Assembly: GCF_026210795.1 (NCBI RefSeq)
Contig: NC_089430.1
Location: 3,906,001-3,970,000, forward strand
DNA length: 64,000 nucleotides
Reading direction: 5' to 3'
Origin: Rhizophagus irregularis
Taxonomy: Eukaryota
Below are positions 9,274 through 53,900 of this stretch, one piece after another. The first letter of the stretch is position 1. Each line of letters begins with the position of its first letter. A program made the translations under genes and the position numbers. The notes beneath the pieces are model-generated. The model had not been told where the DNA came from, made no database searches, and worked only from the letters and a program-made list of their open reading frames with translations.

Positions 9274-11148
9274 ATCATATTATTATTTAATTTATATAAT
9301 TATATTATATTACTATATTGTTTTATTTGTCAATTACAATATTATTTTAATATCAGAAATAGTTGAATTTTTTTTGATTTCATAAAGTTTCTATTTTTAT
9401 ATAGTTTTTGCTGATATATTGTATTAATATTAGAATTCTTAAACCAAATTTTCCATATTCTAATTTTGGTTCATGTGATCATTTAATATATCAAATATGT
9501 AGCTAATATATTTGATTAATAAATATGAGTTCAGATGCAATATATAGCATTTTACTAGGACCTGGACATTACATATACAACTTAGAGAATAACTTTTTAG
9601 CAAATTGGTCTAAATTTCAAAAAAAAATCACATTTTTTGCGATTATCTCGGCATCCAGTGATCCAATTTATGCGAACTTTTTTTGTTTTGTAGTCCCCAT
9701 CAAGCTTTACAAAATAAAAAAAAAATTCGCATGAATCAGATCAGGACCCTGAATAATACTAATATAACTCACAAGTGAACTTTAAGTACTGAAGTAAAAA
9801 TACATTTTATGATATAACTCTGTTAATATTGAAGCTAAGAATTCAATTTTACTATCATTAGAATCCTCTCATTAAGACGAATCTAATGATATAAATTTTA
9901 TTAAAATCGAATCACTGGTTGTGTTAAAAACAGGAGTATGTAGGATAACAAAATTTTAAAAATACCTCTATAATATGCAACTTTTGAAAAATTTTAATAT
10001 AAACTCTACATAAACTCAAATGTGAGTTGTATCAGTATTGTTTGAGTCCTATCAAATCACTAGATGCCAAGATAATCACAAAAAACTAAAAATAAAAAAA
10101 GAGTAAATTTGGTTTTTTTTAGCAAAAAGTTAGTTGTAAGTTTTATAAGAGATGTTCAGAGTCCTATTTTACTATATAATTTTATTATATTCAGTATAAT
10201 TAATCATTTTAGTTTGATATAATAAGTTTTCAATATATTTAGATTCATTATATATATTCAGTAATAAGTGATACTATACTTTTAAAATATTATATAATTA
10301 AATTTTAGAAATTTGCTACTTATCATTAGCAGTGATCATTGCTGAAATCATGTAATTTTTAATTTTAGTCATAATTAAATGATTTATAATATAAAAATTG
10401 CTTTTTTGAAATATTGTGTACTAATTCATTTTTCCATTTTTTATGAAAATAAAATTGCCTTTTTTGGATTATATAATATTACTCAAATTTTTAAAAAAGC
10501 GAAAATTTGGCCAAAATTACAGAATATGACAAATAAGAATAACAAATAGACACAGTATGACCCTAATTGCTTCTGAAAAATAAAAACGTATTTTACAAAT
10601 AACTTTTGATCTAGCAGTTTAATTTTAATAATTTTTTTTTATTTTAATCAGGATAATAAAAGTTATTAATTAAAAAAAAATTATTAAAATTGAATTACTA
10701 GATACTGAGATAATTATTTTTGGAAGTTAAATTAAGTTCAAATCAAGTTCAAATTAAATCGAATTTTAAAGAAAAATTTGATTCGTGCAAAAGACTACTG
10801 GTGATCTGTTTTCTAAAGCAAATATACATATCAATAAATACTATTCTGCTAAATATTATAAGAAAAAAAAATTTAAAATATTTTTGAAAATTAATTTATA
10901 TGTAAAATTATTTTATTATACAAGTATAATTTCACAAATGATTTGCAAAATATTATTTATTACATTATATATATATCAATAAGAATTAAAATGATTTAAA
11001 ATTCTATTTACTTATAATAAAGGTCATTATAGAAAATTAGCTCTTTACTAATGATTTTTACTTTACTTTTTTCTTAAATTTTATTGGTTAATTAGCTAAA
11101 AAGAAAAAAAAATATAATAATATAACATAAAATTTTCTTTTATAATAA

Positions 11149-11327
11149 GGGGAGTTACACATATCACGTAATATTCATTTTCTTATAAACCTTACCCCCC
11201 CCCCTGTTAGATTTCATAACCAATCAAATTATAATATTTATAAATCATATGATTTAAATAAGTGTAACGTAAAATTTTAACTACCCCCTCCCCCCCTATA
11301 ATAATTACATAATATGTGTAAGCTCCC
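11149..11327. mobile_element. PIF/Harbinger-type MITE
   Basis: TIR GGGAGTTACACATAT / ATATGTGTAAGCTCCC; 3-bp TAA TSD. Confidence 0.75.
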
Positions 11328-11419
11328 TAAGATCTGCAAAGAATTTTATATATTTTTTATTTTAGACCTGAAAGATTAAAGCTCTACCATCTGACCCGAC
11401 AGATCAAGTGACCTGGCGG

Positions 11420-12660
11420 TGTAAACGGCCGAATATCAAGCACGAAAAGATGATAAAACACCACCGCCAAATGTAATTATCAAGTATTAAGAACGAACAA
11501 ATTAATCGTGGATTGGTGTGGATGGATAAATAATTAGCCGAAAAGGATAAACATTTAAGAAGAGTAATGATCTGCATGATGTAATATTTATTGAATGATT
11601 GACAAAGAACCAATAGGATAAATAGAGTCGATCATTTGCGGCTTAGCGATCTTTAACAATGAGAACGATAAGAAAGAATAATTATAAGCCACAAAAGATA
11701 GATTATAAGCAAAACACATAAAGCGGATTAAAAGAATATATAAAATAATGTCGGAAAGATTAAAGAACACAAAATAATATAAAAGATAATATAAAAAGAT
11801 GGCATAAAGATGGAACATAAAAGATAACATATCAAAAAGAACATATATAAAAAGATAACACAGCCACAAAAGATGAATTATATCTTTACGACATAATATT
11901 TGAAAGATTATTTTAAAGAAAAGATAGCACAGCCATAAAAGATGGGTTATAAATTATTTCTTTACGATGTAATATTTGAATAATAGAAAAGATAATATAT
12001 AGAATAATATATAAGATAGCATATTAAAAGATAGCGTATTTAAAATATAGATAGCACATTAGAAAGATAGTTCAAAGATAATATGTAAAAAGAACATAAA
12101 AGATAGTTTATAGATAGAATAGAAAATAGCATAAGAATTGTATATATAGAGAACGGAATTCAAAGTAATTCCATAGTTCGCATCCACAGAACTCAATAAA
12201 ATATAAGTTTCATTTAATTATTTGTTAATGAAGTTTAATATTAATTAAAGGTAATAGGTTCGCCCTAAACTTTAATTAATGTTTGATTAATTAATTTTAA
12301 TTAATGAAAATTTAAGATGAATTAAATATATACCTTTGGAAGATAATAATTCGTAGCGAGAGCTATTGCAGTTTGAAATCGAAAGTGGATATAAATTGAG
12401 GAAAATTCAGAGAAGTTAATTTTATTTTATACCGTTCAACGTTTTATATTACTAACGCTATTTATTTTGTGAACCAAGAATGTTGTTGTATATTGTTCGT
12501 TGATGTTGTTGTTCGTTAATTATGTTTTGATCGCGTGTTTGTTCGTTTGATTGCTCGTTCGTTCGTTTGTTTGTTCGCTCATTCGTTCGTTCGACCATGA
12601 GAATGCCCGTTCGATGTGGCAACCTTGTAAATTGATGACAGGGGGAATTGGGGGATCTCA
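11420..12660 (+). repeat. 5' LTR (1241 bp)
   Basis: TGTAAACGGCC...GGGGATCTCA; matches 16025-17265 with two mismatches spotted by eye. Confidence 0.97.
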
Positions 12661-12662
12661 TA

Positions 12663-12680
12663 TGGTGCATGCTCGCAAGA
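12663..12680 (+). promoter_or_regulatory. Putative primer-binding site
   Basis: TGGTGCATGCTCGC begins 2 nt after the 5' LTR; TGG is complementary to the tRNA CCA end. The cognate tRNA was not identified. Confidence 0.7.
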
Positions 12681-14156
12681 AAGGAAATGATCATCATCAC
12701 ATGATTATTATTAATATGAAAATTTAATTTCGTTAGTAAGTCACTGATAGGTATTATTAATCAATATTTTATTTTAGAATTTATTTTTAGATTTCAGGTT
12801 TTGACGAGTTCAAAAGGAACCAATAAATCAACGAGGATTTAACGAGTTAAAAACTTGAAAAGGCGAAAGATTGGAGTTTGAAGTTGTGCAAGTAATCACT
12901 TAATCGATAGAAAGCACAAGAATGTTTCTTTCGGGAATAAAGTACCTGAGAAATTTCATAAGGAGATGTGGAAGTTGAAGATGGATTTTAGAATAAAGAT
13001 TAATAATGGGAGAACACCAATGTATTATCCGGGGTTCATCTGTGTGGTATGGGTTACCTCTGAGTTTGGATTTTGGATGAATGCTCGAGATTGGAAAATT
13101 TTTATTCTTCGATATTAAAGATTATAACGTATGGGTTACGTCAAATCTGGATACCCAGCTCAATAACACGTGAATTGCTTTGGGGACGGGGAATGAAAAT
13201 TGTAAAAGACACCTACTATCAAGAAACATTGGATGGATAAAATGGGACAAACCTGTAAACTATCATGCTTTGACCGAAGGGAAAAAGATAGAGATAAGCC
13301 CAGTATAGGTCCACCAATTTAAGAAAGTTGGTTTAGATGAGTTTTATGGATAGCTGATGACTTTTGAAACTGGATTTCGGAAGATTAGATTCACCCGTTA
13401 AGAGACGAGTCGGCCAACGAAGGAGGAAAAGACGGATATGTTGTATTGTTACAGGTCCTAGGCTACATTTCAGATGAGGGTTCCTGGTGTAGTGTCCTAG
13501 TTCACGCTTTCATTACAATGTTCCGTTAAAAGAAGGAAAAAATAGAAGGATATTTACACATTAACGAGCCGTATAATGAACATTACGTGCAGTATTTAAT
13601 AATAGAGTAAAATCCGAAAAGAAGGACATTTATTTAAAAGAAGAACATTTATTTGAAAAAGAATATTTATCTGAAAAAGAACATTTATTTGAAAAGAAAG
13701 ACATTTATCTGAAAAGAACGACATTTTGTGTGTTATAGATTAATTTATATAATATAGAATATATAGTAAGAAGGATTTATGTGGACGATAAGAAAGATTG
13801 GAAATTCGCAAACCTTAAAACTCCAAAATTTTCATAAAGTTTGTGATATGTGAAATTATGGATCTTGGTGACAAAAAGATGTGACAAAAAGATGTGACAA
13901 AAAGAGGTGATAAGTGAAACTATGAATCACGGTGACGAAAAGATGTGACATGTGAAATTAGGGAAATCAGTGATAAAAGATAAATTTTATGGCGCAGTAA
14001 AAAACCTCCGCAGCCTGAGGAGATCGTGGACTTAGAAAAATTTTTGAAACTTTAAGGCGCAGCAAAAATTAATAGTAAAATATGGCATAGTGAATATATA
14101 GAACCGAAAGATGGAATTTAAAGATTGGAAGAAGTAATCTATTTAAAGATGGAAGA

Positions 14157-15872
14157 ATGTTTAGAAGATCAAAAATAGAAATGATAAGAGTGAAATATAT
14201 ATATATAGAGAGAGGAATCCGATTGAGATTCTGGATGGATATTCATAGCAATTTAACTAAAGCATATAATGGAATGGTACCATCAATGGAAAGCGAATAT
14301 AGAACACATAAAGAGGAACACGAATTAGGAACGGAAGAATTGGATGAATGTTTAAATTGTGAATTATGTTATCCAATAGTAAATGAACCAATAGTATTCA
14401 AGAAATTTTGGGACGCGTTATTTAAATTTGAAGATGCAATAATAATATACAATGACGTAACGATTAAGGGAGTATTAGATTTATTAAGTATGAATAATTC
14501 AGAAAGGGAAGATACAATACATAAAGGGAAATGTAGATTTTTGGAAAGAAATATAGAATTTTTAGGACATATAGTAGGAAATGATGGATTGAGGCCGGAC
14601 GATAAAAAGATAGAAAAGATAAAAGAAATGAAGGCACCGACAACGGTGAAAGAAGTAAGATCATTTTTAGGACTTTGTTCATATTACAGAAAATTTGTGA
14701 AGAATTTTTCAAAGATAGCAAGACCAATAAGCGACTTGAGAAAGAAAGGAGTACCTTTTATTTGGGGAAAAGAACAACAAGAAGCGTTTGAAAAATTGAA
14801 AGAAAAGTTAATACAATATCCAATATTACGACATCCAGATTGGAAGAAAGAATTTTTATTAATAACAGACGCATCGGGAAAAGGATTAGGCGCAGTATTA
14901 AGTCAAAAAGACGAAAAAGGAAAAGAAGTAGTAATAGCATATGCAAGTAGAAGTTTATTACCAGCAGAAGAAAATTACCCGATAACAGAATTGGAATGTT
15001 TAGGAATAGTTTGGGGAATTCAACATTTTCATAAGTATTTAATCGATAGAAAATTTAAAGTAATAACAGATCACAGTGCATTAAAAGGATTAATGAACGC
15101 AAAAATACCAAAAGGAAGAAGAGCAAGATGGGTAATGGAATTACAGCAATATAATTTCGAAGTAGTACGTAGGTCGGGAAAAGAAAATACGAACGCCGAC
15201 GCACTAAGTAGATTATTAAAGATAGTGGAGGAACAACCAGAAATAGTAATAATCGATGGAGTAGACGGATTGGGAAAAACAAGTATAGTACAAAATTTAA
15301 TTAAAGAATGGGAAGAACAAGGATTAAAAGTAAGATTCAATACTTATAAAAGAAGAAGAAAAGATAAAGATGAATTTCACGAATCAAAGATGGATACAGA
15401 ATGGAAATTCAGAAAAGAAGTAGTGGAACAAATAAATAGAAGAATGGTAGAATACGATGAAGATACAGATATAATAATTTTGGACAAATCACCATATTGT
15501 GAATATTATTACCAAAAGACGAAAAGTTTTGACAGAGGATTAATTACTCCACATGGAAATCATGAGATGGAAAAAGAGATATTCAGATTGAAGGAAACAA
15601 TAGATAAATCAATAGTGATATTTTTAGAAAAAGATGGCGACGTATGTTGGAAAAATTACATTGGAAGAGAAACAAAGAAAACGGAAAAATCATCATATCC
15701 AACATTAAGGAAGAATGAATATTTGGACATGGTTAAAATGTTTGAAGAAAATCAAAGTGTGTACAAAGATACCAAAAGATACAGTCGAGTAAAAGTTAAA
15801 AATGATGATAATAGCTGGAGAAAAGTATTTAAAGAGGTGGAAAAATGGAGAATGGTTAAAGAAATTTTATGA
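14157..15872 (+). CDS. 571-aa fusion: CxxCxxC N-terminal region + RT thumb/connection + Ty3/Gypsy RNase H + thymidylate/deoxynucleoside-kinase-like P-loop domain
   Basis: RT: KCRF..EFLGH, VRSFLGLCSYYRKFV. RNase H: ITDASG, AYASR, TELE, TDH, ADALSR. Kinase: IIDGVDGLGKT (Walker A), ILDKSPYCEYYYQ, IVIFLE..VCWK..GR. The start codon is uncertain. Confidence 0.85.
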   Translation: MFRRSKIEMIRVKYIYIERGIRLRFWMDIHSNLTKAYNGMVPSMESEYRTHKEEHELGTEELDECLNCELCYPIVNEPIVFKKFWDALFKFEDAIIIYNDVTIKGVLDLLSMNNSEREDTIHKGKCRFLERNIEFLGHIVGNDGLRPDDKKIEKIKEMKAPTTVKEVRSFLGLCSYYRKFVKNFSKIARPISDLRKKGVPFIWGKEQQEAFEKLKEKLIQYPILRHPDWKKEFLLITDASGKGLGAVLSQKDEKGKEVVIAYASRSLLPAEENYPITELECLGIVWGIQHFHKYLIDRKFKVITDHSALKGLMNAKIPKGRRARWVMELQQYNFEVVRRSGKENTNADALSRLLKIVEEQPEIVIIDGVDGLGKTSIVQNLIKEWEEQGLKVRFNTYKRRRKDKDEFHESKMDTEWKFRKEVVEQINRRMVEYDEDTDIIILDKSPYCEYYYQKTKSFDRGLITPHGNHEMEKEIFRLKETIDKSIVIFLEKDGDVCWKNYIGRETKKTEKSSYPTLRKNEYLDMVKMFEENQSVYKDTKRYSRVKVKNDDNSWRKVFKEVEKWRMVKEIL

Positions 15873-16010
15873 TCGGAGGGGATTTACACCAAAAATAGTA
15901 ATTAAAGGAAAAGAGGTATTCGATAAGACCCGAGTTCGATTCGATTAAAATTATTATGAATGAGACCCGAGTTCGATTCTTTTAAAGTTATTTGTGAGGT
16001 CACAAATAGC

Positions 16011-16024
16011 GAAGAGGGGGATAA
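16011..16024 (+). promoter_or_regulatory. Polypurine tract
   Basis: GAAGAGGGGGATAA directly before the 3' LTR. Confidence 0.85.
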
Positions 16025-17265
16025 TGTAAACGGCCGAATATCAAGCACGAAAAGATGATAAAACACCACCGCCAAATGTAATTATCAAGTATTAAGAACG
16101 AACAAATTAATCGTGGATTGGTGTGGATGGATAAATAATTAGCCGAAAAGGATAAACATTTAAGAAGAGTAATGATCTGCATGATGTAATATTTATTGAA
16201 TGATTGACAAAGAACCAATAGGATAAATAGAGTCGATCATTTGCGGCTTAGCGATCTTTAACAATGAGAACGATAAGAAAGAATAATTATAAGCCACAAA
16301 AGATAGATTATAAGCAAAACACATAAAGCGGATTAAAAGAATATATAAAATAATGTCGGAAAGATTAAAGAACACAAAATAATATAAAAGATAATATAAA
16401 AAGATGGCATAAAGATGGAACATAAAAGATAACATATCAAAAAGAACATATATAAAAAGATAACACAGCCACAAAAGATGAATTATATCTTTACGACATA
16501 ATATTTGAAAGATTATTTTAAAGAAAAGATAGCACAGCCATAAAAGATGGGTTATAAATTATTTCTTTACGATGTAATATTTGAATAATAGAAAAGATAA
16601 TATATAGAATAATATATAAGATAGCATATTAAAAGATAGCGTATTTAAAATATAGATAGCACATTAGAAAGATAGTTCAAAGATAATATGTAAAAAGAAC
16701 ATAAAAGATAGTTTATAGATAGAATAGAAAATAGCATAAGAATTGTATATATAGAGAACGGAATTCAAAGTAATTCCATAGTTCGCATCCACAGAACTCA
16801 ATAAAATATAAGTTTCATTTAATTATTTGTTAATGAAGTTTAATATTAATTAAAGGTAATAGGTTCGCCCTAAACTTTAATTAATGTTTGATTAATTAAT
16901 TTTAATTAATGAAAATTTAAGATGAATTAAATATATACCTTTGGAAGATAATAATTCGTAGCGAGAGCTATTGCAGTTTGAAATCGAAAGTGGATATAAA
17001 TTGAGGAAAATTCAGAGAAGTTAATTTTATTTTATACCGTTCAACGTTTTATATTACTAACGCTATTTATTTTGTGAACCAAGAATGTTGTTGTATATTG
17101 TTCGTTGATGTTGTTGTTCGTTAATTATGTTTTGATCACGTGTTTGTTCGTTTGATTGCTCGTTCGTTCGTTTGTTTGTTCGCTCATTCGTTCGTTCGAC
17201 CATGAGAATGCCCGTTCGATGTGGCAACCTTGTAAATTGATGACAGGGGGAATTGGGGGACCTCA
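16025..17265 (+). repeat. 3' LTR (1241 bp)
   Basis: TGTAAACGGCC...GGGGACCTCA. Confidence 0.97.
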
Positions 17266-17389
17266 GCGGGTTGACCTGAAATATTCAGATTAGGTCATCA
17301 AATTCATGACCTGATATGGGTCAGGTTCGTGCTAGTCAGTATCTGACTTGACCCATTGATCTGATATATATTTAAGTCAAATAAATTAA

Positions 17390-18590
17390 AAAATGCTGAA
17401 ACTAATAGTTCTGGCATTTTTGTATATAAAATCAAAAGAAAAACTGCCAGAATTAATGATTCTAACATTTTTACATGTAAAATCCAAAAAAATGCTAAAA
17501 CTAATAGTTTCAGCATTTTTACATGTAAAATCAGAAAGAAAAATGCTGGAACTAATAATTCTGGTGTTTTTACATGTAAAATCAAAAAAATGCTAAAACT
17601 AATAGTTTCAGCATTTTTACATGTAAAATTGAAAAAAAAGCTGAAACTAATGATTCCAGCATTTTTACATGTAAAATTGAAAAAAAAATGCTGAAATTAT
17701 CAGTTTCAGTGTTTACATGTAAAATTAAAAATAAAAATGCCAGAACTAATAATTCTGATATTTTTACATAATTACATGTAAAATCGAAAAAACTTTAAAA
17801 CTATCAGTTTTGGCGTTTTTATATGTAAAATCAAAAAAATGCTAAAACTATCAGTTTTGGCGTTTTTACATGTAAAATCAAAAAAAATGCCAAAACTATC
17901 AGTTTAGCGCTTTTATATGTAAAATCAAAAAGAAAAATGCCAGAACTAATAATTTCAGTGTTTTTACATGTAAAATTGAAAAAAAACTTCGAAACTATCA
18001 GTTTTAGCGTTTTTACATGTAAAATCAGAAAAAAAATGCTGGAACTAATAATTCTGGTGTTTTTACATGTAAAATCAAAAAAATGCTAAAACTAATAGTT
18101 TCAGCATTTTTACATGTAAAATTGAAAAAAAAGCTGAAACTAATGATTCCAGCATTTTTACATGTAAAATTGAAAAAAAAATGCTGAAATTATCAGTTTC
18201 AGTGTTTACATATAAAATTAAAAAGAAAAATGCCAGAACTAATAATTCCGATATTTTTACATAATTACATGTAAAATCGAAAAAAACTTTAAAACTATTA
18301 GTTTTGGCGTTTTTACATGTAAAATAAAAAAAAATGCTAAAACTATCAGTTTTAGCATTTTTATATGTAAAATCAAAAAGAAAAATGCCAGAACTAATAA
18401 TTCCAGTGTTTTTACATGTAAAATTGAAAAAAACTTTGAAACTATCAGTTTTAGCGTTTTTACATGTAAAATCAAAAAAAAATGCCAGAACTAATAATTC
18501 TGGCATTTTTACATGTAAAATTAAAAAAATGCTAAAACTAATAGTTTCAGCATTTTTATATATAAAACAAAAAATAAAATGCCAAAACCT
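17390..18590. repeat. Tandem array of ~48-50-bp units with ~494-bp higher-order repeat
   Basis: Each unit carries the palindrome TTTTACATGTAAAA; variant units recur at 17521/18015 and 17761/18254. Confidence 0.92.
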
Positions 18591-19029: not shown

Positions 19030-20100
19030 TAAGGATGGTGCCGCAAATAAGCAATTGCAGAATAATTGCAATTTACGGTATTGCGGAACATTGCGGATTT
19101 TTAAACCTAAATATCTGCAATTTCGCAATCCGCAATTATCCGCAATTTCGCAAATATTCCGCAATTCTGCAATTCCGCAAAGTACCGCAATTCAATTGCG
19201 GAATAATTGCGGAATTGCGGAATATTTGCGAAATTGCAAAACATTTGCGGAATTGCGACTATTTGCAATTTTGCAATATTTTTTATTAAAGCAAAGCAAT
19301 CCCGAATATACTTTGAAAAACGTTTCACAACGTTTTTTCTTTAAATTAATTGAAAAAATGTTGCGAAACGTTTTTTTAATTATAAAATAGTTTGAAAAAA
19401 CGTTTCACAACATTTTTCTTTAAATTAATTGAAAAAATGTTGCGAAACATTTTTTTCAATTATAAAATACTTTGAAAAAACGTTTCGCAACGTTTTTTCT
19501 TTAAATTAATTGAAAAAACATTGCGAAACGTTTTTTCAATTATAAAATACTTTGAAAAAACATTTTGCAACGTTTTTTCTTTAAATTAATTGAAAAAATG
19601 TTGCAAAACATTTTTTTAATTATAAAATAGTTTGAAAAAACGTTTTGCAATGTTTTTTCTTTAAATTAATTGAAAAAATGTTGCGAAACGTTTTTTTCAA
19701 TTATAAAATACTTTGAAAAAACGTTTTGCAACGTTTTTTCTTTAAATTAATTGAAAAAACATTGCGAAACGTTTTTTTCAATTATAAATACTTTGAAAAA
19801 ATGTTTCGCAACATTTTTTCTTTAAATTAATTGAAAAAACGTTGTGAAACGTTTTTTTCAATTATAAAATACTTTGAAAAAACATTTTGCAACGTTTTTT
19901 CTTTAAATTAATTGAAAAAATGTTGCGAAACATTTTTTCCAATTATAAATACTTTGAAAAAACGTTTCGCAACATTTTTTCTTTAAATTAATTGAAAAAA
20001 TGTTGAGCAAACGTTTTTTTAATTAAAAGCACTTTAAAAAAATGTTTCGCAATATTTTTCATTAAATTAGTTAAAAAAATGTTGCATAAACGTTTTTTCT
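19030..20100. repeat. TTGCGGAATT-rich subterminal block followed by a ~80-bp tandem array (~10 units)
   Basis: From 19310, units contain the inverted pair AAAAAACGTTTCGCAAC / GTTGCGAAACGTTTTTT. Probably the left arm of a non-autonomous DNA transposon. Confidence 0.85.
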
Positions 20101-20136
20101 TATTAAATCGGTTCAGTAAACTAGTGCCAAAACCAT

Positions 20137-26575: not shown

Positions 26576-28282
26576 TCATGTAAGGTGGTTATACCTAAAA
26601 GAAATATTTAATAGCTCATGCACTCGATGTGTATGAGCATATTGCGAGAATGAAACATCAACATTATCTACGTCCTGCCCTCTGAAAAAATGATTCTGCC
26701 AATTATCTTTTACTCTCCTCGCCAAAAACACATTAGAAATATTATGCGGGTGCTTAAAAATCTGGTCATATCGGAAATACCCAGATGGATCAATAGCCGG
26801 TCCAGATTCCAGAATCATCTTTCGAGCATCAATCAAAATCTTGCGACGAACTCTACTATCATCATAGTCTGCGATATGTCCACCAAAGACTTCTGTTACC
26901 CAATTCATTGATGACATTACGTGAACCGTATTGCTTCCTGAACAAGCTTTAATCAATTTGTGAAAATCGCGTGCACGAAAAAAATCGCAAATATTACTCC
27001 AAGACATTGTTGATGCATTCAATTGCTTAATTGAATTTAACAACTCGGAATCATCACTAACCATTTGAAAATGCAGGTAGATTTCCATCATTTCTATAGG
27101 CGGTGATAACCAAGTGCAAACTTTTGCAATTGCATCTTCAAGGAAATTGCAAAGTGCATCTAAAAAACTAGTATTTTCACGTTGATATTTAGGTAGAATA
27201 GCATTCACTGGCATCATATGAAGCATAAATTCGCTTGCCGAGTGTGGTGAAATCCCATCATTGCAGTTAAACATCGTAATACTTGCAACTAGATTTTTTG
27301 GTTGTTGGTCATTCATGAGTGGAAACTCACCAGTAAGGATATGACGCGCGACTTGTACACGATCTCGCGGTTCAACAAGATTTGGAACAATAGCAAATAT
27401 GCTGTCTGTTTTATCAAAAGTACTTGCCCAAAGATCATGTGCATTTTTCCGGGATTTCGGCGAGCTAACTGACTGACACCAGTGAGAAATCAACGATCTA
27501 ACTTCCGGGTGAAGCTCTTTTTTAGTAGGGTTTGGTGGTTTGTCATTCGGTGCATTTTCAAATTGCAAGACATTCTTGGCAGCAATCTTAAAGTAATTTA
27601 AAGTTTCAACTGTCCAAACAGTAGAAAGCCAAACTTCTATGATTGACCGAACTGGTGCCTTTCTCATCATCATTTCCACAATCACATTGGTCTTTGCAAC
27701 CGCATAAACAGATCCTTCATAACCAATAAATTTGTTTGGCTGTTTCGTTGAATTCTCATTTTGTACAATTGTAGCTTGTAAAAGTAAATCTAAATCTACA
27801 AATCCGACAGCAACATGAACTTTACCTTGATTAAGTGATAGGCTTTGCTTATGCGTATTACTAAAGCTCAAAGCACATGAACCTGTATCCGAAAAATATG
27901 GTATAGCTGTTGTTCTAGCAAAAATGTCGCCAATTTGCCTGGGGGATGAGAGAAAATCTGAAAGTTCCTTTGACCATGAACGCCATCTCCCTATTTTGTT
28001 GTCTTTGAATTGTAAAATCGTATCTATGGAATCTTCATTATATTGTAGGTTTCCTTGCACATGCGCAAGGAGTTGGATTTGGTTTTTTTCACGCTGATAT
28101 TTTTCAGCATAATCTCGTTTGAAATTAGGTACAATGGCTTTAACAGCTGGTTGCTGCGTTACGCATATTTCCTTGTGATCTTTATAGTCTTGTTTTTGGC
28201 ATGCCTTAGAACAGTAATATGTTTGTTGGCATCTCGAACATCGGTCCTTGCAAGGTTTCTGGCAGACATTGCATTTATTCAT
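26576..28282 (-). CDS. Intronless 568-aa MYND zinc-finger protein with a large uncharacterised C-terminal domain
   Basis: N-terminal CNVC..CSRC..YYCSKACQKQDYKDHKEIC fits the zf-MYND consensus; long open frame; higher GC than the flanks. Confidence 0.88.
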   Translation of the reverse strand: MNKCNVCQKPCKDRCSRCQQTYYCSKACQKQDYKDHKEICVTQQPAVKAIVPNFKRDYAEKYQREKNQIQLLAHVQGNLQYNEDSIDTILQFKDNKIGRWRSWSKELSDFLSSPRQIGDIFARTTAIPYFSDTGSCALSFSNTHKQSLSLNQGKVHVAVGFVDLDLLLQATIVQNENSTKQPNKFIGYEGSVYAVAKTNVIVEMMMRKAPVRSIIEVWLSTVWTVETLNYFKIAAKNVLQFENAPNDKPPNPTKKELHPEVRSLISHWCQSVSSPKSRKNAHDLWASTFDKTDSIFAIVPNLVEPRDRVQVARHILTGEFPLMNDQQPKNLVASITMFNCNDGISPHSASEFMLHMMPVNAILPKYQRENTSFLDALCNFLEDAIAKVCTWLSPPIEMMEIYLHFQMVSDDSELLNSIKQLNASTMSWSNICDFFRARDFHKLIKACSGSNTVHVMSSMNWVTEVFGGHIADYDDSRVRRKILIDARKMILESGPAIDPSGYFRYDQIFKHPHNISNVFLARRVKDNWQNHFFRGQDVDNVDVSFSQYAHTHRVHELLNISFRYNHLT

Positions 28283-28358
28283 TGTAAAATTGGTTAACGT
28301 GTATTTTATCGGTGTTTAATATATGTTTTTATGTCGCACAGACCTAATCGCCATTACA

Positions 28359-29002: not shown

Positions 29003-29599
29003 CTAACTTAGCTGATTCAATTAATCTGATTGGCAATGTGCCTGAATAAAAAAATAACTGAATATTTATCGCGCCAGAAAAAAAAAACTCCTTAATCTGT
29101 TGATCTGCCGGGAGATGACCTACCCTGAATATTTATCGCACCAGAAAAAAAATATAATAATTATGTAAGCACAGCCTCCTCCAGCTTGCTTGTATGCACT
29201 GTATCAATAGTCTAGCTCACTGCCATGATCTAAACCTAATGATTTTGGTTGCAAAGTAGACAAGTAAGGCGGCAGCATAGCGGACATGCTTTTATCACTT
29301 TGCCGATCATTTGTCGATCATATAATATATCATGTCACATTAATTTTGAAGCTATGGTTAAAGCCATAAAATGCTTAGCCAAACTATACTAATGTCTTTT
29401 TAGTAGTATAATTTATGAAAAATAAAAAAAATTATATTGTCAAAGTTAACCTTAAACCGAAATTTTCAATAATTTGATATTTGCCTATATTTGCCGATCA
29501 TCTCACTGGTCGAAATTAAAAAAATCGGGACATATGGAAAATCGGCCAAAAATCAGACCAAAATTGACTAACATTATAAATCGGCACATCTGATTGATG

Positions 29600-30500
29600 C
29601 CAATCAGACAATTTGATAAAAATTCAGCAAAAAATCATTATATTTGATTGACGGCTGATTGATGCTAGTTGAAATCAAAAAAAAAATGGACAAATGGCAA
29701 ATCAACCTAAAATTTGCCCAATATTCAAATATGCACTTCCGATTTATGGAAAATTGACAATTCAATAAATATTCAATAAAAATTCAATAAAAATTCAGCA
29801 AAAAATCATTATATTTGATTGACGGCTGATTGATGCTGGTTGAAATTAAAAAAAAATGGACAAAATAGCAAATCAACCTAAAATTTGCCCAATATTCAAA
29901 TATGCACTTCCGATTTATGGAAAATTGACAATTCAATAAATATTCAATAAAAATTCAATAAAAATTCAGCAAAAAATCATTATATTTGATTGACGGCCGA
30001 TTGATGCTTGGCCAAATTAAAAAAAAAAATTGACAAAATAGCAAATCAACCTAAAATTTGCCCAATATTCAAATATGTACTTCAGATTTATGGAAAATTG
30101 ACAATTCAATAAATATTCAATAAAAATTCAATAAAAATTCAGCAAAAAATCATTATATTTGATTGACGGCTGATTGATGCTGGTTGAAATTAAAAAAAAA
30201 AATCTGACAAAATGGCAAATCAACCTAAAATTTACCCATTAATATTCAAATATGTACTTCAGATTTATGGAAAATTGACAATTCAATAAAAATTCAATAA
30301 AAATCCAACAAAAATTTGTTAAAAAATCATTATATTTGATTGACGGCTGATTGATATCAAAAAAAAATCTGACAAATTTGTAAATCAACCTAAAATTTAC
30401 AATATTCAAATATGTACTTCAGATTTATGGAAAATTAACAATTCAATAAAAATTCAATAAAAATTTAGCAAAAAATTATCATATTTGATTAACAGCTTAA
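29600..30500. repeat. ~170-175-bp tandem array (5-6 units)
   Basis: AAAAAATCATTATATTTGATTGACGGC recurs. Confidence 0.9.
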
Positions 30501-30939: not shown

Positions 30940-32900
30940 CGTTTTCTAACATTTTTTTTTTATACTTTTAAATAGGAAATCGGCTCCTACTTGGATACCG
31001 AATTCCAAAGGTAAGTTTCGAAGAATTTCTTCGAAACTTTATAAAAAAAACGTTTTCTAACGTTTTTATACTTTTATATAGGAAATCATCTCTTACTTGG
31101 ATACCGAATTCCAAAGGTAAGTTTTGAAGAATTTCTTCGAAACTTTATAAAAAAAATGTTTTCTAACATTTTTTTTTATACTTTTATATAGGAAATCGGC
31201 TCCTACTTGGATACTGATTTCCAAAGGTAAGTTTCGAAACAAAAGTTTCGAAACTTTAAAAAACGTTTTTTAATATTACTAAAAACGTTTTTTTTTACTT
31301 TTGTATAAAAAATCAGCTCCAACGTGGACGCCGATATTCCAGATAAGTTTCGCATTTTCGAAACTTCTTTGAAAAAAATGTTTAACGTTTTTTTTTTTAA
31401 TATTATTGTAGGAATACCGTAAAGTTTCGAATTTTCGAAACTTTTTGACAAAAATTAATAAAAAACGTTTAATTTAACGTTTTTTATTATATTTTATTAT
31501 TTTTTTTTGCAGGGAAATTGGCTCCAATATGAATACCAGAATCCCGCAGGTAAAGTTTCGATTTTTCGAAACTTTTTGAAAAAAATTAATAAAAAACGTT
31601 TAATATAACATTTTTTATTATATTTTATTATTTTTTTTTGCAGGAAATCGGCTCCAATATGGATACTGGAATCCCACATGCAAAGTTTCGATTTTTCGAA
31701 ACTTTTTGAAAAAAATTAATAAAAAACGTTTAATATAACGTTTTTTATTATATTTTATTAATATTTTTGCAGGGAAATCAGCTCCAATATGGATACCGGA
31801 ATTGCACATGCAAAGTTTCGATTTTTCGAAACTTTTTGAAAAAAATTAATAAAAAATGTTTAATATAACGTTTTTTATTATATTTTATTAATATTTTTGC
31901 AGGGAAATCGGCTCCAATATGGATACTGGAATCCCACATGCAAAGTTTCGATTTTTTGAAACTTTTTGAAAAAAATTAATAAAAAAACGTTTAAATTTAA
32001 CGTTTTTTTATTATTTTTATTAATTTTTTTTGCAGAAAATCAGCTTTAAATTGGATATCGGAATCCTGCAAGTAGTTTCGATTTTCGAAACTTTTTGACG
32101 CAAATTAATAAAAAAACGTTTAAATTAACGTTTTTTTATTATTTTTATTATTTTTTTTTTGCAGGAAATCGGCTCCAAATTGGATACCGGAATCCCGCAA
32201 GTAAAGTTTCAAGTTTCGAAACTTTACGAAACTTAATAAAAAAACGTTTAAATTTAACGTTTTTTTATTATTTTTATTAATTTTTTTTGCAGGAAATCAG
32301 CTCCAAATTGGATACCGAAATCCCACAAGTAAAGTTTCGATTTTCGAAACTTTTTAACGCAAATTAATAAAAAAAAACGTTTAATTTAACGTTTTTTTTA
32401 TTATTTTTTATTATTTTTTTTTGCAGGAAATCGGCTCCAAATTGGATACCGGAATCCCGCAAGTAAAGTTTCGAAGTTTCAAAACTTTATGAAACTTAAT
32501 AAAAAAACGTTTAAATTAACGTTTTTTTATTAGATTTTATTATTTTTTTTGCAGGGAAATCGGCTCCAAATTGTACCAGAATCCCGCAGGTAAAGTTTCG
32601 TCAAAACTTTTTGACGCAAATTAATAAAAAAACGTTTAATTTAACGTTTTTTTATTATTTTTTATTATTTTTTTTTGCAGGAAATCAGCTCCAAATTGTA
32701 CCGGAATCCCGCAGGTAAAGTTTTGATTTTTCGAAACTTTTTGACGAAACTTAATAAAAATGTTTAATTTAACATTTTTTATTATATTTTATTAATTTTT
32801 TTGTATGGAAATTGGCTTCGATTTGCCATCCTACAGGTAACGTTTTGATTTTTGAAACTTGAAACTTAAAAAAAAACGTTATTTTAATGTTTTTTCTTTT
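30940..32900. repeat. ~120-130-bp tandem array (~15 units)
   Basis: GGAAATCGGCTCC..TGGATACCGGAATCCC..AAGTTTCG..CGAAACTT recurs. Confidence 0.92.
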
Positions 32901-37899: not shown

Positions 37900-40448
37900 A
37901 ACTTTTAATTCATTATTTATTTTACCAAATTCTGGTGTTTGTTCATATAAAAATCTTATTATTTTATTTGCAGCATCATCTGCTTCTACTAAACTAACTT
38001 TTCCAATACAGGTAGAAATTCATCTTTATCTATTAAAAACTCTTCTTTATTATTTGCATTTAATATAGTATCAATTATTTCATTATCAGTAAATCCTTTT
38101 TTTGGCATTTTATTATCTATATGAAGATACTCATACATGTACATTAAGATTACTTTTTGGAAGTTGAGCAATTAGCATATCAAGTTCCTTAATTTTTCTA
38201 TCTAATGTACTAAAAATTTAATATGTGCATTATTAAAATTTTATAATAATTTCTATATATACATCTTGTTATATCATATCTATCAGAGAGTTATTGAATT
38301 ATAAATTTTTAGAAATTTCTTCAATTTCATTATTTGGTGAAAGAATACCTGTTTTTTCCAGCAATTTGAAATTATTTAAGATGATACCATAGATCATGCT
38401 TCAGCTGCATTTTGCAAAGCATCATAAATTGTATAATCATTAAGTTTTTTTTATAATATCATCTTGCATATTATTATATGCATTGAGATTCCCTAATTTC
38501 CTCTTTCATCAAAATAAAGAGTTGTCACATCAAATCAGCATTCTCATGGACGATCAAACAAATAAACAAACAAACAAACAATTATGATCAACAAATAATA
38601 ATATTTCACATAAAATAAATCATGTTAGTAATACAAAACATCAAATGATATAAAATAAATTCAACTTCTCTAAATTTTCCCCATAATTCATCCTTTTATT
38701 AACATTTTCAAACTTCGATAGCTTTTATTATGAAGTATTTCATATTTATTTCAACTTCAAAAATTCAATAATTCTCATTACGAAAGTGTATATTTATTTC
38801 TTCTTGTGGTTATTATTAAAAAATTAAATATTAATTAAAACTTAGACGAACCATAAGTATATTCGAAATAACTTTTAATAATTAATATTTTATTGAGTTA
38901 CACTAAACTGTGAGATTCACTTTAAATTCCACTCCTATTTATACTTTTACAAATTTGATTTTCTATTTTATGTGTTATACTTTCTTTCATCTTTTTATTC
39001 TATTTTTTTCTAATCTGTTACTTTCTATTCTAATCATTCAATAAATATTACATTATAAAGAAATATTCTATCGTAAAGAAATAATCTTTTCAAGAAATAA
39101 TCTTGTAAAGAAATAATCTAATACTTATCAATTATTTCCAACTTATAATCTATACTTTGTGACTTATAACTACTCCTCCTAATTATTCCTATTGATGAAC
39201 TTGATAAACTTATTATTTTATTCCTATTGATGAGCTCAATAAACTGGTTGTTATGTTATAATCGATCAACTTCCTAATTAATCTATTTGATCTTCATTAA
39301 TTATTCAATAAATATTACATCATGTAGATTATTTCATTTTCCAAATGTTTATCCTTCTGGCTAATTATTTATCCAATTATGTGACTTTCTATCATATGAT
39401 CTTTCATTCAATACATTATTCTTCCATATTACAAGGTTATCCCGATATCTAGGGTCACAGTATAAATAATCCAAAAAAGTTTATATTTATAATGATATTT
39501 AAATGAATGAATTATATCTGCATCACATGATTGAAGTTTAGGTGTAGTATTTGGTGGTAAAAATTTTACTTCTATACTATTTAATTTTTCACGAGTTTTA
39601 TTTAAAATGAAATACACTGGTGCATTATCAATTAATAGAATGATCCTTCTATTTTTTTTTTTCATTATTTCATTAAGTTTAAAAAGAATCATATTAAAAA
39701 TATATACTAACTTGCACCCAAGCTTTATTGTTCCAAAAATAATAAACTGAAAGGTTCTTATAATTAATATTTCTTATAACGTATGGAGCTTTGTATTTAT
39801 AAATAAATAAAAGGGATATTTTTTCTATTCCAGTTGCATTTATTGCACAAAAAATTGTAACTTAAGATTTTTTTTTCTTATGTTCTGATAAAAAACTCAT
39901 GCTAATATTCTAAAAGGTTCCATTTTTCAGAAAAAACCAGTTTCATTCCCATTCCAAATATTCTTAGAATTGTAAAATGCAAGAATCTGTTATAAAGTAA
40001 GTCGGTCATGTTCTATTGATTTAGCAGAAAGTGCACTTGTGACTTCACTTTGCTTCTTGTATTGGCATAAACTATGATGTTTTTTAAGGTCAATTAATTA
40101 TTCATCTGGTTGATGAAAATCTTCTATTGAAAACTGGTTAGTAAAATAACTTACCTTTATTTTTAAAATATTACTATCAATATCTTGTTTTATATTAAAT
40201 GCATTGTCAACCCAAAAAGTAAGTGCATTTTTAAGTTATGACTACTTTGGACCACAAAATTTTTCAATACTTTTTTAATTTTCTGTAATTGAAAGCTATT
40301 ACTCTTTTTCTTTTAAAATATTTTTTATTGTTGATTTTCTAATATGATATTATTGTGCAAAACTAACGTTAAAAAGGTTAGAATTTTTTTTTATTTTACA
40401 AAGTTCATGTTTTTATGTAGCAAAAAGGATAACTTTCTTTCTTGACAT
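37900..40448 (-). pseudogene. Decayed pogo/Tigger (CENP-B-like, DDE_1) transposase
   Basis: MSRKKVIL.. N-terminus, IILLIDNAP, FLPPNTTPKLQSCDADII, DALQNAAEA, W.KTGILS; many stops and frameshifts; Tigger-like TIR ends at 40745; interrupted by a solo LTR. Confidence 0.85.
38484..39459 (-). mobile_element. Degenerate solo LTR related to the 11420-17265 element
   Basis: Reverse complement matches the LTR 3' part (CATGAGAATGC..GATGTG.CAAC..GGGAATCTCA); TG..CA ends; 4-bp TSD GCAT/GTAT. Confidence 0.85.
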
Positions 40449-50993: not shown

Positions 50994-53900
50994 CTAAGAT
51001 CCACCACGGATTATAGAAGAGGAAACCCAAGAAACCCAGGAATCCGAGGAAACTGTTGCCAAGGAAGGTGTCAAAGAATCAGGAGGAATGTAAGAAGAAA
51101 GTTGAAAAATAGAAGAAGGCCCAAGAGCTGACAATTTCATTTTTTTTGTAATGCCTTGAGCTGATTTCCAATGATGAAAGAAAATGGAACGGCACAACCA
51201 GATTTGTACATAAAGGTCAAAATGAAAGTCGTATAAAGGTGTATCTAAGATAGACCAAATGGTAAATGATGAAAAATAATTTCCAAGAAATTCTGTAAGA
51301 GATATCGGTATAAGTCCACGTGCAAGCTTCAGACAGGAAATTGAAGGAGGGTCACAATCCCAGCAATCAATAGATTTAAAATCAGCAGCGAAGGAATCCG
51401 ATAAAGGTAGTAAAGATGACTCAGAAAGAAATTTATCAAGATAAGTAGTCCGAAGATCCAGTAATAGTGCTTTAAAAGTTGTTAAAGGGCTAAATTCTGG
51501 TAAGATATAAGGACAAGTCCACAAGTGGTCTAAGGTTTCAGGAGAAGAGTTACATTGAGGACAAAGCCAACTCGGATTATAAAGATGAGGTTTTTGTCTC
51601 TGGAGAGTTGTAAGCGTTAGAAGCATATCTAATAATAATTTGATACGGAAGCTACAAAAATCGGAACGGCCATTCCGATGAGAGACAAATTGCTTATTGT
51701 TGTTAAGACAAAATTTGGTGCAAGCCCAATCGATATCTGAAGTTGGGGAACAGGAATTAAATCTTGGTAATGCAGCAAGAGTTAAAAGACTTTTAGCGTC
51801 AAAGATATCTCTAACAAATTTCCGGATATTCATATCTACAGGTAAAGAATTAAATTGTAAAATGCAAGGAGCCAATAATTCTGACAATGGACGAGAAGAA
51901 AGATATGAATCAGTGTGAGCGGCTTTGGCTAGAGCATCCACATGATTATTCAAAGGGTTGTCAGCGTAAGCAGGAACCTTGATCAAGGTAACATCCAGAT
52001 TCTTTAGTGAGCATTCGTCGTATAGAAGACCGAAGGTGGTTGGGTTCTTTAAGTAATTTAGGAATAAAAGGAGCATTCACATACGAAGACCATAAAGAAA
52101 GTAATTGAGCACAATCAGTGGCGACAGTAATCTTTGAATTCCGAGGGAGGGAGTCCAATCCATGCATTAAAGCACAAATTTCTGAACGTAAAGCAGAAGG
52201 AAAAATAAAAGAAATAATATTATAGTGAGATTCCAAAATAAATCCGTCAGGATCTATAGCAGTCCATGCATAAGCCATCGAGGATATCAGATGACTAGAA
52301 GGAGGGAGGAAAGAACCATCCATATAAAGTGTAGACACCGAAGAAGGAAGTTGGATATCAGAAATCCTAGGCACTTGGTTATTCATAGAAGGTAATCGAA
52401 CTAAAAGATGGAATAATAAAAGAGATTTGGCATAACCTAACGAGGCAGAAAGTGAAACCGAGCGAGTGTCCGCATGTATGTAAGTACGAAGTTTCGTAGG
52501 ATAATGGATCAAACTTGATAACGGAACATAAGAAAAGCATCCTTCAGAGGGACATCGTTTAAGTAAAGTCTTAGAGGTAGAGGATCGCGGAATAGCAGAG
52601 GCATAACCTTGGCATGCAGTAAATTCAGAAAGCAAATCATCAACAGATGACGCAATCCAATGTGAAATAAGAGCTTCATTACGCGGAGCAGGATAGGTAG
52701 TAATCACACGGCCAACAAGAAAAGAGTTAGTATTACGATTAAAAGAAATAGCCCATTGGGGTTAAACCAATAATTTCGACTAATATCTATAAAAGAAATA
52801 AAAGCTACAGTATGAGAAATAGGAATTCTAAATTGTGGTAAAACAAACAAAGAAGGAGAATTAGGAATAACAATAAGATTAAATAAATAATTAAACCAAG
52901 CAGGCACAGATCCTTTGTTTGATACTCGTTTAAGAAAGCATAAATCTTTCCACGAGAGGAGTCGAGAGCCACACGGTGTAATCAATTGAGCAAGAAAACG
53001 AGTGCAGAAATTTTTTCGAATATTATTCATGGAAATAAATAAATCTTTCGGTAAAATAGAACGGAGTGGAATCGCCGGACATAGATCCTTTCTCGGAGGT
53101 CAGAACAATAAAGACCACGTGATATTTAATCGAGAAGAGAATAATAAAGAATTGAACAAAGAATGTGTTCGCAAGGAAAATGTATGGGACTATGGTTCTA
53201 AATCAATAGTAGAAGGACAGGCATCACAATCCAAAAATCCTTGAAGATAAGTAATCATACAGTTGGCAAAAAGCTTGTATGAAGGGTGAGAAAAAATTCT
53301 TTGCCATGAAGCCACATGAGATGATAGGAATCGACCAAACGCTTGTTGGATAGAGAACGGCAACAGTGTGAAAAGCGCGGAAAGAGGAGTGACTGAGGCC
53401 AAACCAGCCTTCTGTCGAATAAGAGAGAGCATTGGAGAAACCATGCGATTAATGGTAGATTCAGCAAATAATGTGGTTTGAAGGCGAAATTCTAGCCTTG
53501 GAAGTAAGACAATGTTATAAAGATAGGCCACATGTTGTGCCAAAAGCTTTTTAGGACTGAGTAGAGCAGCCATGTCTTTGACCATGGAAGTACATTGATC
53601 ATGAACAAAATGAGAGGAAGCTGAAAGACAAAACCAGACACCTAAAAAATGGAAAGATTTAGATAAAGCTAACGCCTTCAATGTAAGGGAACAAATAGGG
53701 ATTAAGGGGGATGGAAAAAGATCAAACACTATAGTTTGAGAAAATTGTTCAGAAGAAAGAAGGATATATTTTGCAGAATTCGCTTGAGTATTATTTAAAG
53801 TATAGAATTCAGCAGTAATGGAAAGGCGATCTTCAATTCCTCGTTTAGATGAAGCAATCAAAGTAGAATCATCCATAAATGTAATATGCGAAACAGGAAG

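Follow-up and report, generated by a model that had tools for sequence, protein, structure and literature searches.

A predicted thymidylate/deoxynucleoside kinase-fold domain between RNase H and integrase in a Ty3/Gypsy retrotransposon lineage of Glomeraceae

Here we present a lineage of Ty3/Gypsy LTR retrotransposons from glomeromycotan fungi whose pol region encodes, between RNase H and integrase, a domain predicted to adopt the P-loop fold of thymidylate and deoxynucleoside kinases (TMPK and dNK). The window, that is, the whole 64,000-nt stretch of Rhizophagus irregularis DNA analysed, holds a young, internally deleted member of this lineage at 11420-17265. The kinase belongs to the element, stays linked to pol throughout a lineage, and is under purifying selection about as strict as that on an essential pol enzyme. 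On balance we lean slightly towards a predicted nucleotide kinase that supplies dNTP precursors for reverse transcription. The fuller proposal is more tentative, with a little less than an even chance of being right: that a glomeromycotan LTR lineage encodes on its RT an anabolic TMPK/dNK-type kinase of its own with a D-K motif, derived from a NUDIX-kinase ancestor and making dNTP precursors where the cDNA is synthesised, possibly with host polyphosphate, and is the first such retroelement.

Retroelements have been thought to depend wholly on host dNTPs, and the best-known nucleotide cargo among them, dUTPase, removes a bad substrate. If the predicted activity is real, a selected kinase on RT-RNase H would amount to a retrotransposon investing in nucleotide supply in the manner of large DNA viruses, and to the first retroelement known to build, and not only to sanitise, the nucleotide pool. 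It would also open to test the question whether retrotransposition in fungi that are multinucleate and divide slowly is limited by the dNTPs available. The D-K kinase family is newly defined, and its chemistry is open to direct assay.

The features of the element in the window are as follows.

11416..11419, no strand: left target-site duplication, GCGG
11420..12660, + strand: 5' LTR, 1241 nt, TG...CA, with 2 differences from the 3' LTR
12661..14268, + strand: long 5' leader, with no + strand ORF of at least 80 aa before 14094
12663..12674, + strand: PBS-like site TGGTGCATGCTC, 2 nt 3' of the 5' LTR
14269..14537, + strand: remains of an additional ORF, which full elements have upstream of gag, with a CxxCxxC motif, fused in frame to RT at a shared K-C-R
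14529..15215, + strand: the C-terminal region of RT followed by RNase H (TDAS, ELECL, TDH, ADALSRL), the RT catalytic core being deleted
15237..15851, + strand: kinase domain, predicted TMPK/dNK-fold P-loop, about 205 aa (DGVDGLGKT, NTYKRRR, EWKFRK helix, DKSPYxE, lid YIGRE)
15841..15948, + strand: integrase remnant, the last 35 codons, in another frame; deletion join near 15844-15852
16008..16021, + strand: polypurine tract (PPT), just 5' of the 3' LTR
16025..17265, + strand: 3' LTR, pairing with the 5' LTR at 99.84% identity
17266..17269, no strand: right target-site duplication, GCGG

The initial annotation of this DNA had placed the kinase ORF between a PBS and a PPT and taken it as part of the element, and the LTRs, the PBS-like TGGTGCATGCTC, the PPT and the GCGG duplication bear this out. 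No tRNA genes were found in the 64-kb window, and the PBS-like site was not matched to a primer tRNA. Three short blocks of the leader are similar to the leader of a relative, L002. The element is inserted just left of an AT-rich tandem array (17370-18580).

The window ORF listing has a single stop-free frame at 14094-15872, which runs past ADALSRL (15195-15215) into about 210 aa as had been described; the kinase domain begins 7 codons after that motif, and an open run of 215 codons would arise with p about 2e-10 given the base composition here. The kinase motifs quoted at the outset are all in place (IVIIDGVDGLGKT at 15243-15281, IILDKSPYCEYYYQ at 15474-15515 and IVIFLEKDGDVCWKNYIGRE at 15612-15671), and Pfam identifies RT_RNaseH at aa 228-332 (E 8.5e-38) and RT_RNaseH_2 at aa 203-302. 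Set against fuller relatives, the frame reads from about 90 codons of the extra ORF through a jump at K-C-R into the C-terminal part of RT, RNase H, the kinase and an integrase tail; gag, protease, the RT catalytic core and nearly all of integrase are missing. Both deletion joins lie in short stretches common to the two sides, as judged from protein and from the DNA of the relatives L001 and L002, which suggests template switching or microhomology repair. The out-of-frame integrase remnant gives the kinase ORF its tail, MVKEIL. That the kinase replaces the integrase is ruled out by this tail at 15841-15948 and by L002, which has both the kinase and a full integrase. The kinase had been reported where integrase should be because the integrase is deleted in the window copy; the place of the domain is between RNase H and integrase. 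The window copy is non-autonomous, a by-product of its retrotransposon family.

An R. irregularis protein of 534 aa (P0003) is identical to the window copy over the kinase and is the same deletion derivative, read from the ATG at 14269. Relative to P0003 the window has a one-base frameshift just 3' of this ATG, which would be either a mutation or an assembly error. The start at 14157 given in the initial annotation is probably not the real one, and we rejected it for the ATG at 14269 because P0003 begins there and the frameshift in the window follows right after. Two further proteins, P0009 and P0011, fuse the same upstream ORF to the same point in RT, from a later position, although these are gene models that may hide introns. 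All three are deleted derivatives in which the upstream ORF is in frame with the end of RT, RNase H and the kinase, and this type is possibly a non-autonomous subfamily. NCBI names all three phosphodiesterase-like. The kinase flags many R. irregularis gene models as transposon parts, some of them misnamed in this way.

Using the kinase alone as query, we retrieved 38 homologues of 378-2000 aa and 66 more of 118-377 aa. RNase H was present in 31 of the 38 long homologues and integrase in a further 4, so that 35 carried one or the other; of the remaining three, one had a zinc knuckle, one a NUDIX domain and one none. Named matches were restricted to Glomeraceae (R. irregularis, R. clarus, R. diaphanus and Glomus cerebriforme), the others being metagenome records, and of the 3 loci from a metagenome scan 2 were true relatives. 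The layout is seen in the DNA of L002, which encodes the end of gag, protease, an RT-RH-kinase frame of 709 aa without a stop, and an integrase (H2C2 + rve); the order in the family is therefore protease, RT, RNase H, kinase, integrase. The linkage of kinase to pol, on which the initial annotation had left a question, thus holds across many copies. The best match of the L002 RT-RH is the RT of Ty3 (PDB 4ol8, E 2.5e-109), followed by caulimovirus-type (3e-75) and foamy (3e-46) enzymes, a Ty3/Gypsy assignment by match scores.

With its two TG..CA LTRs, target-site duplication, PBS-like site and PPT in the window copy, and its protease-RT-RNase H-integrase order and Ty3-like RT-RH in L002, the lineage falls with Ty3/Gypsy elements. 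It is unlike typical members in the kinase between RNase H and integrase, in the division of the L002 pol into separate frames, in an extra ORF upstream of gag, and in that no chromodomain was found on the L002 integrase, where one was looked for. The separate frames (protease, RT-RH-kinase, integrase) are seen at L002:3010-3018, L002:375-890 and L001:1040-1290. The integrase of L002 opens at a TAATG stop-start overlap, an arrangement that would suit termination-reinitiation, and in L001 an ATG 2 nt past the kinase stop opens a coiled-coil-like ORF of about 80 aa ahead of integrase. The extra upstream ORF, with its CxxCxxC motif, is seen at 14269-14537 in the window, at L002:5966-6286, in residues 1-213 of P0009 and at the N-terminus of P0037; it had no Pfam match and no Atlas match above 0.79.

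Sub-lineages differ in the linker between RNase H and kinase, which is 4-5 residues long in the clade of the window and 74-80 residues in others. The family also includes stand-alone ORFs of about 264 aa and kinase-integrase gene models, and automatic annotation calls some members "thymidylate kinase". In AU tests on 37 of the 86 full-length kinase domains, with P0057 and P0072 (pol) and P0120 and P0131 (NUDIX) labelled by likeness, a clade of pol-linked kinases apart from the stand-alone ones was rejected (p-AU 1e-5), and the NUDIX group as a clade was not (p-AU 0.25). The former result suggests that the stand-alone kinase ORFs are likely to lie in elements as well.

Modelled with AlphaFold2 from a 35-sequence alignment, the kinase domain is predicted to have a TMPK/dNK P-loop fold with a lid (pLDDT 91.4, pTM 0.88), in agreement with the NMP-kinase-type fold that the initial annotation had anticipated. 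Three structures tied as best in the VIA structure search: human deoxyguanosine kinase (dGK; 2ocp, Z 16.0, rmsd 3.1, 197 aligned), Staphylococcus aureus TMPK (4dwj, Z 15.7, rmsd 3.2, 184 aligned) and Giardia deoxyadenosine kinase (dAK; 8puu, Z 15.4, rmsd 3.5, 199 aligned). Adenylate, gluconate, shikimate and polyphosphate kinases gave Z of at most 12.2, the rows of the polyphosphate kinase PPK2 lying at 10.5-11.7, and the top Foldseek rows were dAK, archaeal AK, TMPK and dCK. Solved kinases share 9-18% identity with the domain, and TMPK and dNK are not told apart by the fold. Among profiles phrog_761, thymidylate kinase, matched best (E 1.8e-13 over aa 6-208), and 33 of the 35 members matched it. 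Curated TMPK profiles were reached below their cut-offs: Pfam Thymidylate_kin (PF02223) scored the window kinase at 21.6 bits (E 1.3e-4) against a cut-off of 27, a value exceeded by P0029 (30.2) and P0053 (28.9), and the NCBIfam dTMP kinase models gave 20-21 bits against cut-offs of 83 and 193 (TIGR00041, 20.1 against 83). Pfam PPK2 did not match the window kinase, and sequence matches to PPK2 covered the P-loop only (E 0.065-0.08).

Residues were counted over 86 full-length domains out of 205 proteins scored, fragments being excluded. Nine positions are invariant in 86/86: K18 of the P-loop, R63, K88, Y91, Y96, Y145, R148, Y166 and Y180. R45 and D87 (85/86 each), D14 and E93 (84/86 each) are near-invariant, and E149 nearly so. 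The domain thus has the TMPK P-loop, with its acidic residue and GK[ST]. In HH alignments D87-K88 falls on the D-R of TMPKs and [FY]KRR on their FPxR; at the D-R-X arginine the family has D-K in 85/86, E-K in 1/86 and arginine in none. Likewise, N-T-[FY]-K-R-R-R stands at the probable place of the catalytic Glu that dNKs have after strand 2, and D-K-S at that of their E/D-R-S. A monophosphate acceptor, more than a nucleoside, would fit both the acidic P-loop residue and the basic one that follows strand 2, and the domain is likely to work like a TMPK.

The initial annotation had noticed lysine in place of the DR arginine in the window copy. The change is family-wide (86/86), and it is therefore not decay of that copy. 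According to PMC12995831, the D-R-X arginine is essential in TMPKs and PPK2s, its replacement explains the inactive PPK3 subunit, and the same fold has become a polyphosphate kinase, or an inactive subunit. With the D-K motif set against an essential arginine, in a fold known to be repurposed, we have not filed the domain as a TMPK; the change from Arg to Lys is the main doubt about the predicted kinase activity.

Three pairwise comparisons among the window, L001 and L002, which are the only three DNA sequences on which the estimates are based, gave kinase dN/dS values of 0.098, 0.081 and 0.058 over 205 codons, with upper 95% bounds of at most 0.165 and dS of 0.6-1.3. RNase H in the same pairs gave 0.048, 0.085 and 0.067. 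In the 16 proteins that have the two domains together, identity in RNase H co-varies with identity in the kinase (Spearman 0.69, the pairs not being independent). P0013 is an exception: its RNase H is 96% identical to that of P0021, while its kinase is 85% identical to that of the window and 64% to that of P0021, a pattern consistent with a kinase swap between sub-lineages.

Concerning origin, we searched 1.84 billion representatives with a profile and obtained 73 matches at E<=0.001, 45 of them at <=1e-10; the next matches beneath the kinase family, at E 3e-6 to 9e-4, were FtsY-type and prokaryote- or phage-like kinases, as judged on 31 scanned proteins. A recent capture of a host TMPK is unsupported, with no ordinary host gene as a source in this search. 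The initial annotation had raised the case of a host gene captured once, with dN/dS near 1; neither a host source nor such a ratio was seen. The nearest relatives, and the most distant full-length members, are metagenome NUDIX-kinase fusions (P0121, P0123, P0035 and P0184), which belong to the same kinase family and have D-K-[ST]-P-Y, but differ in an N-terminal MutT-like NUDIX domain and in having no pol domains in their records. Their kinases are 33% (P0121) and 46% (P0035) identical to that of the window, and a model of P0121 matched the MutT-like NUDIX domain of 4dyw at Z 15.9 and gave Z 14.8 for its kinase. Pairing of NUDIX with a kinase is typical of nucleotide-pool enzymes. The P0121 cluster has 71 members, many of them fragments on short contigs, and looks like a multicopy element.

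A segment of about 55 aa before the kinase aligned to NUDIX with an HH probability of 83% (E 9e-6, 34 columns in register), but just 2 of the 10 targets scored above every one of 200 shuffles (from the 35 retroelement rows, 2 were dropped for want of a motif match). The long linker of some retroelement sub-lineages may thus weakly resemble the end of a NUDIX domain, which we treat as a lead only. Kinase trees, one of them a quick tree, lack resolution at their deep nodes and do not give the direction of transfer. No close phage, plasmid, bacterial or host donor was found in the IMG/VR, GTDB, phage, plasmid and profile searches. IMG/VR gave 0 loci with P0001, P0121, P0035, P0184 and A2, and 46 with A4, all weak partial matches (E>=2e-5); GTDB gave 10 weak loci with A3; and P0121 had 2 marginal matches in phages and 3 in plasmids, P0001 having none in phages. 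The top Atlas clusters for the kinase were viral, and in HH alignment the phage-type group scored slightly better than canonical TMPKs (98.9% against 98.3%). A match to phrog_761 does not show phage origin, since this broad family also matches canonical TMPKs. Two large phage contigs, L017 and L018, encode a NUDIX-TMPK with the canonical D-R-Y and weak similarity to the kinase family; at 9860-12298 of each lies an 812-aa protein with NUDIX and canonical TMPK first and then a long uncharacterised region.

In the role that we narrowly favour, the kinase would be made as the C-terminus of RT-RH and packaged into the particle with RT, where its P-loop would bind ATP-Mg. It would phosphorylate a deoxynucleoside monophosphate, most plausibly dTMP, and Lys88 would take the part of the D-R-X arginine; host NDP kinase would finish the dNTP. 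The result would be a higher local dNTP supply or dTTP/dUTP ratio during cDNA synthesis, of benefit in hyphae, where dNTP pools are likely low. For this role speak the predicted fold, the linkage to pol, the selection, the invariant residues, the NUDIX-paired relatives and the slot, which is that of the lentiviral dUTPase. Against it stand the lysine found everywhere in place of the D-R arginine, the missed curated cut-offs, the 9-18% identity and a fold that can be repurposed; also, the host has its own dTMP kinase. Furthermore, yeast deletions of rfx1 and sml1, inhibitors of RNR, raised Ty1 mobility without more cDNA, as PMC3002893 reports, so that dNTP supply need not limit cDNA synthesis.

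An unlikely reading, though one to be taken seriously, is that the domain has been repurposed as a nucleotide or nucleic-acid binder, whether as a weak or non-catalytic sensor, as a module by which RT-RH dimerises or is scaffolded, or as a nucleic-acid-end kinase. The universal lysine would suit such a binder, as would the invariant basic K42-R45 with R63 and R73, which could bind a polyanion, and the linker of just 4 residues to RNase H in the window's clade; yet the P-loop GK[ST], the lid Arg and the acceptor-pocket aromatics are conserved just as they are in active kinases, and this holds even for relatives without an RT partner, whether stand-alone or fused to NUDIX. Less probable still is a deoxynucleoside (salvage) kinase acting on free deoxynucleosides, a route that many fungi are without. 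Although two of the three structures that tie as best, dGK and dAK, are of this kind, the two best Foldseek rows are Giardia dAK, the lid has the conserved R148-E149, and Pfam dNK weakly matches the NUDIX-kinase P0121 (E 2.4e-4), the P-loop acid D14 (84/86) is of TMPK type, the conserved Glu is absent after strand 2, presumably the site of the dNK catalytic base, and sequence profiles favour TMPK families.

Arbuscular mycorrhizal fungi are rich in polyphosphate, and a PPK2/PPK3-like nucleotide kinase drawing on such stores would accord with the conserved basic patch of the family and the PPK2 structure rows at Z 10.5-11.7. We regard it as quite improbable: PPK2 lies 4-5 Z units under TMPK and dNK, its sequence similarity is confined to the P-loop, and Pfam PPK2 has no match. 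In PMC12995831, PPK3 is described as arising from TMPK and having a basic cleft, but PPK2 and catalytic PPK3 keep the Arg. Finally, a passenger gene, which the element would have captured a single time and kept without gaining from it, is scarcely credible and largely refuted. In its favour, truncation or deletion is common among the records, and gene models that join across introns may account for some of the NCBI fusions; against this stand the dN/dS of 0.06-0.10, the in-frame position across elements with kinases down to 59% identity in four named species, and the apparent kinase swap between sub-lineages.

Among known systems, the nearest in kind to our predicted kinase element are retroelements with dUTPase (non-primate lentiviruses, and Gypsy elements of basidiomycetes, truffles, rotifers and planarians), which likewise hold a nucleotide-metabolism enzyme inside pol. 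Non-primate lentiviruses have it between RNase H and integrase, the slot of the kinase here, and need it in non-dividing cells (PMC4531489), whereas the Gypsy dUTPases described sit between protease and RT (PMC5408684, PMC6431247), and the domain described here has a predicted P-loop kinase fold and is not a dUTPase. The likeness to TMPK (PF02223, phrog_761) and dNK (PF01712) lies in the fold (Z 14-16), the P-loop xDGxDGxGK[ST], the motif order and the lid Arg; the domain differs in D-K-[ST]-P-Y for D-R-x, low identity, scores under the curated cut-offs and fusion to RT-RH. DNA viruses with TMPK/dNK genes, seen among the viral Foldseek rows, also have their own dNTP-supply kinase, but with the canonical D-R and as weak partial matches only. 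Phytoplasma mobile units reportedly carry tmk genes, these being DNA elements with canonical D-R enzymes.

In the literature searched, whose scope left out Repbase, GyDB, curated TE libraries, supplements and most subscription journals, no description of kinase cargo in LTR retrotransposons was found; the initial annotation had known of no LTR family with an NMP or dN kinase either. In the portions available, three papers on transposons of mycorrhizal fungi (PMC11075540, PMC11952901 and PMC8647823) name kinases just as expanded host gene families, "thymidylate" being absent from the first two, and two on extra retrotransposon cargo (PMC5408684 and PMC6431247) name dUTPase, with "kinase" absent. 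A Gypsy element with nucleotide-metabolism cargo is thus of a known kind, and a TMPK/dNK-fold kinase as that cargo appears to be new.

Elsewhere in the window, an old, diverged relative of the element's LTR lies at 38484-39375 (- strand), with about 62% identity over 700 nt and 80% in patches, and is probably a solo LTR. Identified by eye were a LINE-like element at 50994-57317 (- strand), in which frameshifts interrupt the frames for endonuclease, RT (962 aa) and RNase H, and a 579-aa ORF at 26576-28315 (- strand) with an N-terminal MYND-type zinc finger. AT-rich tandem arrays at 17370-18580, 19250-20105, 29500-30480 and 31430-32810 have units of about 47-50, 80, 171 and 130 nt, and the 80-nt units are palindromic.
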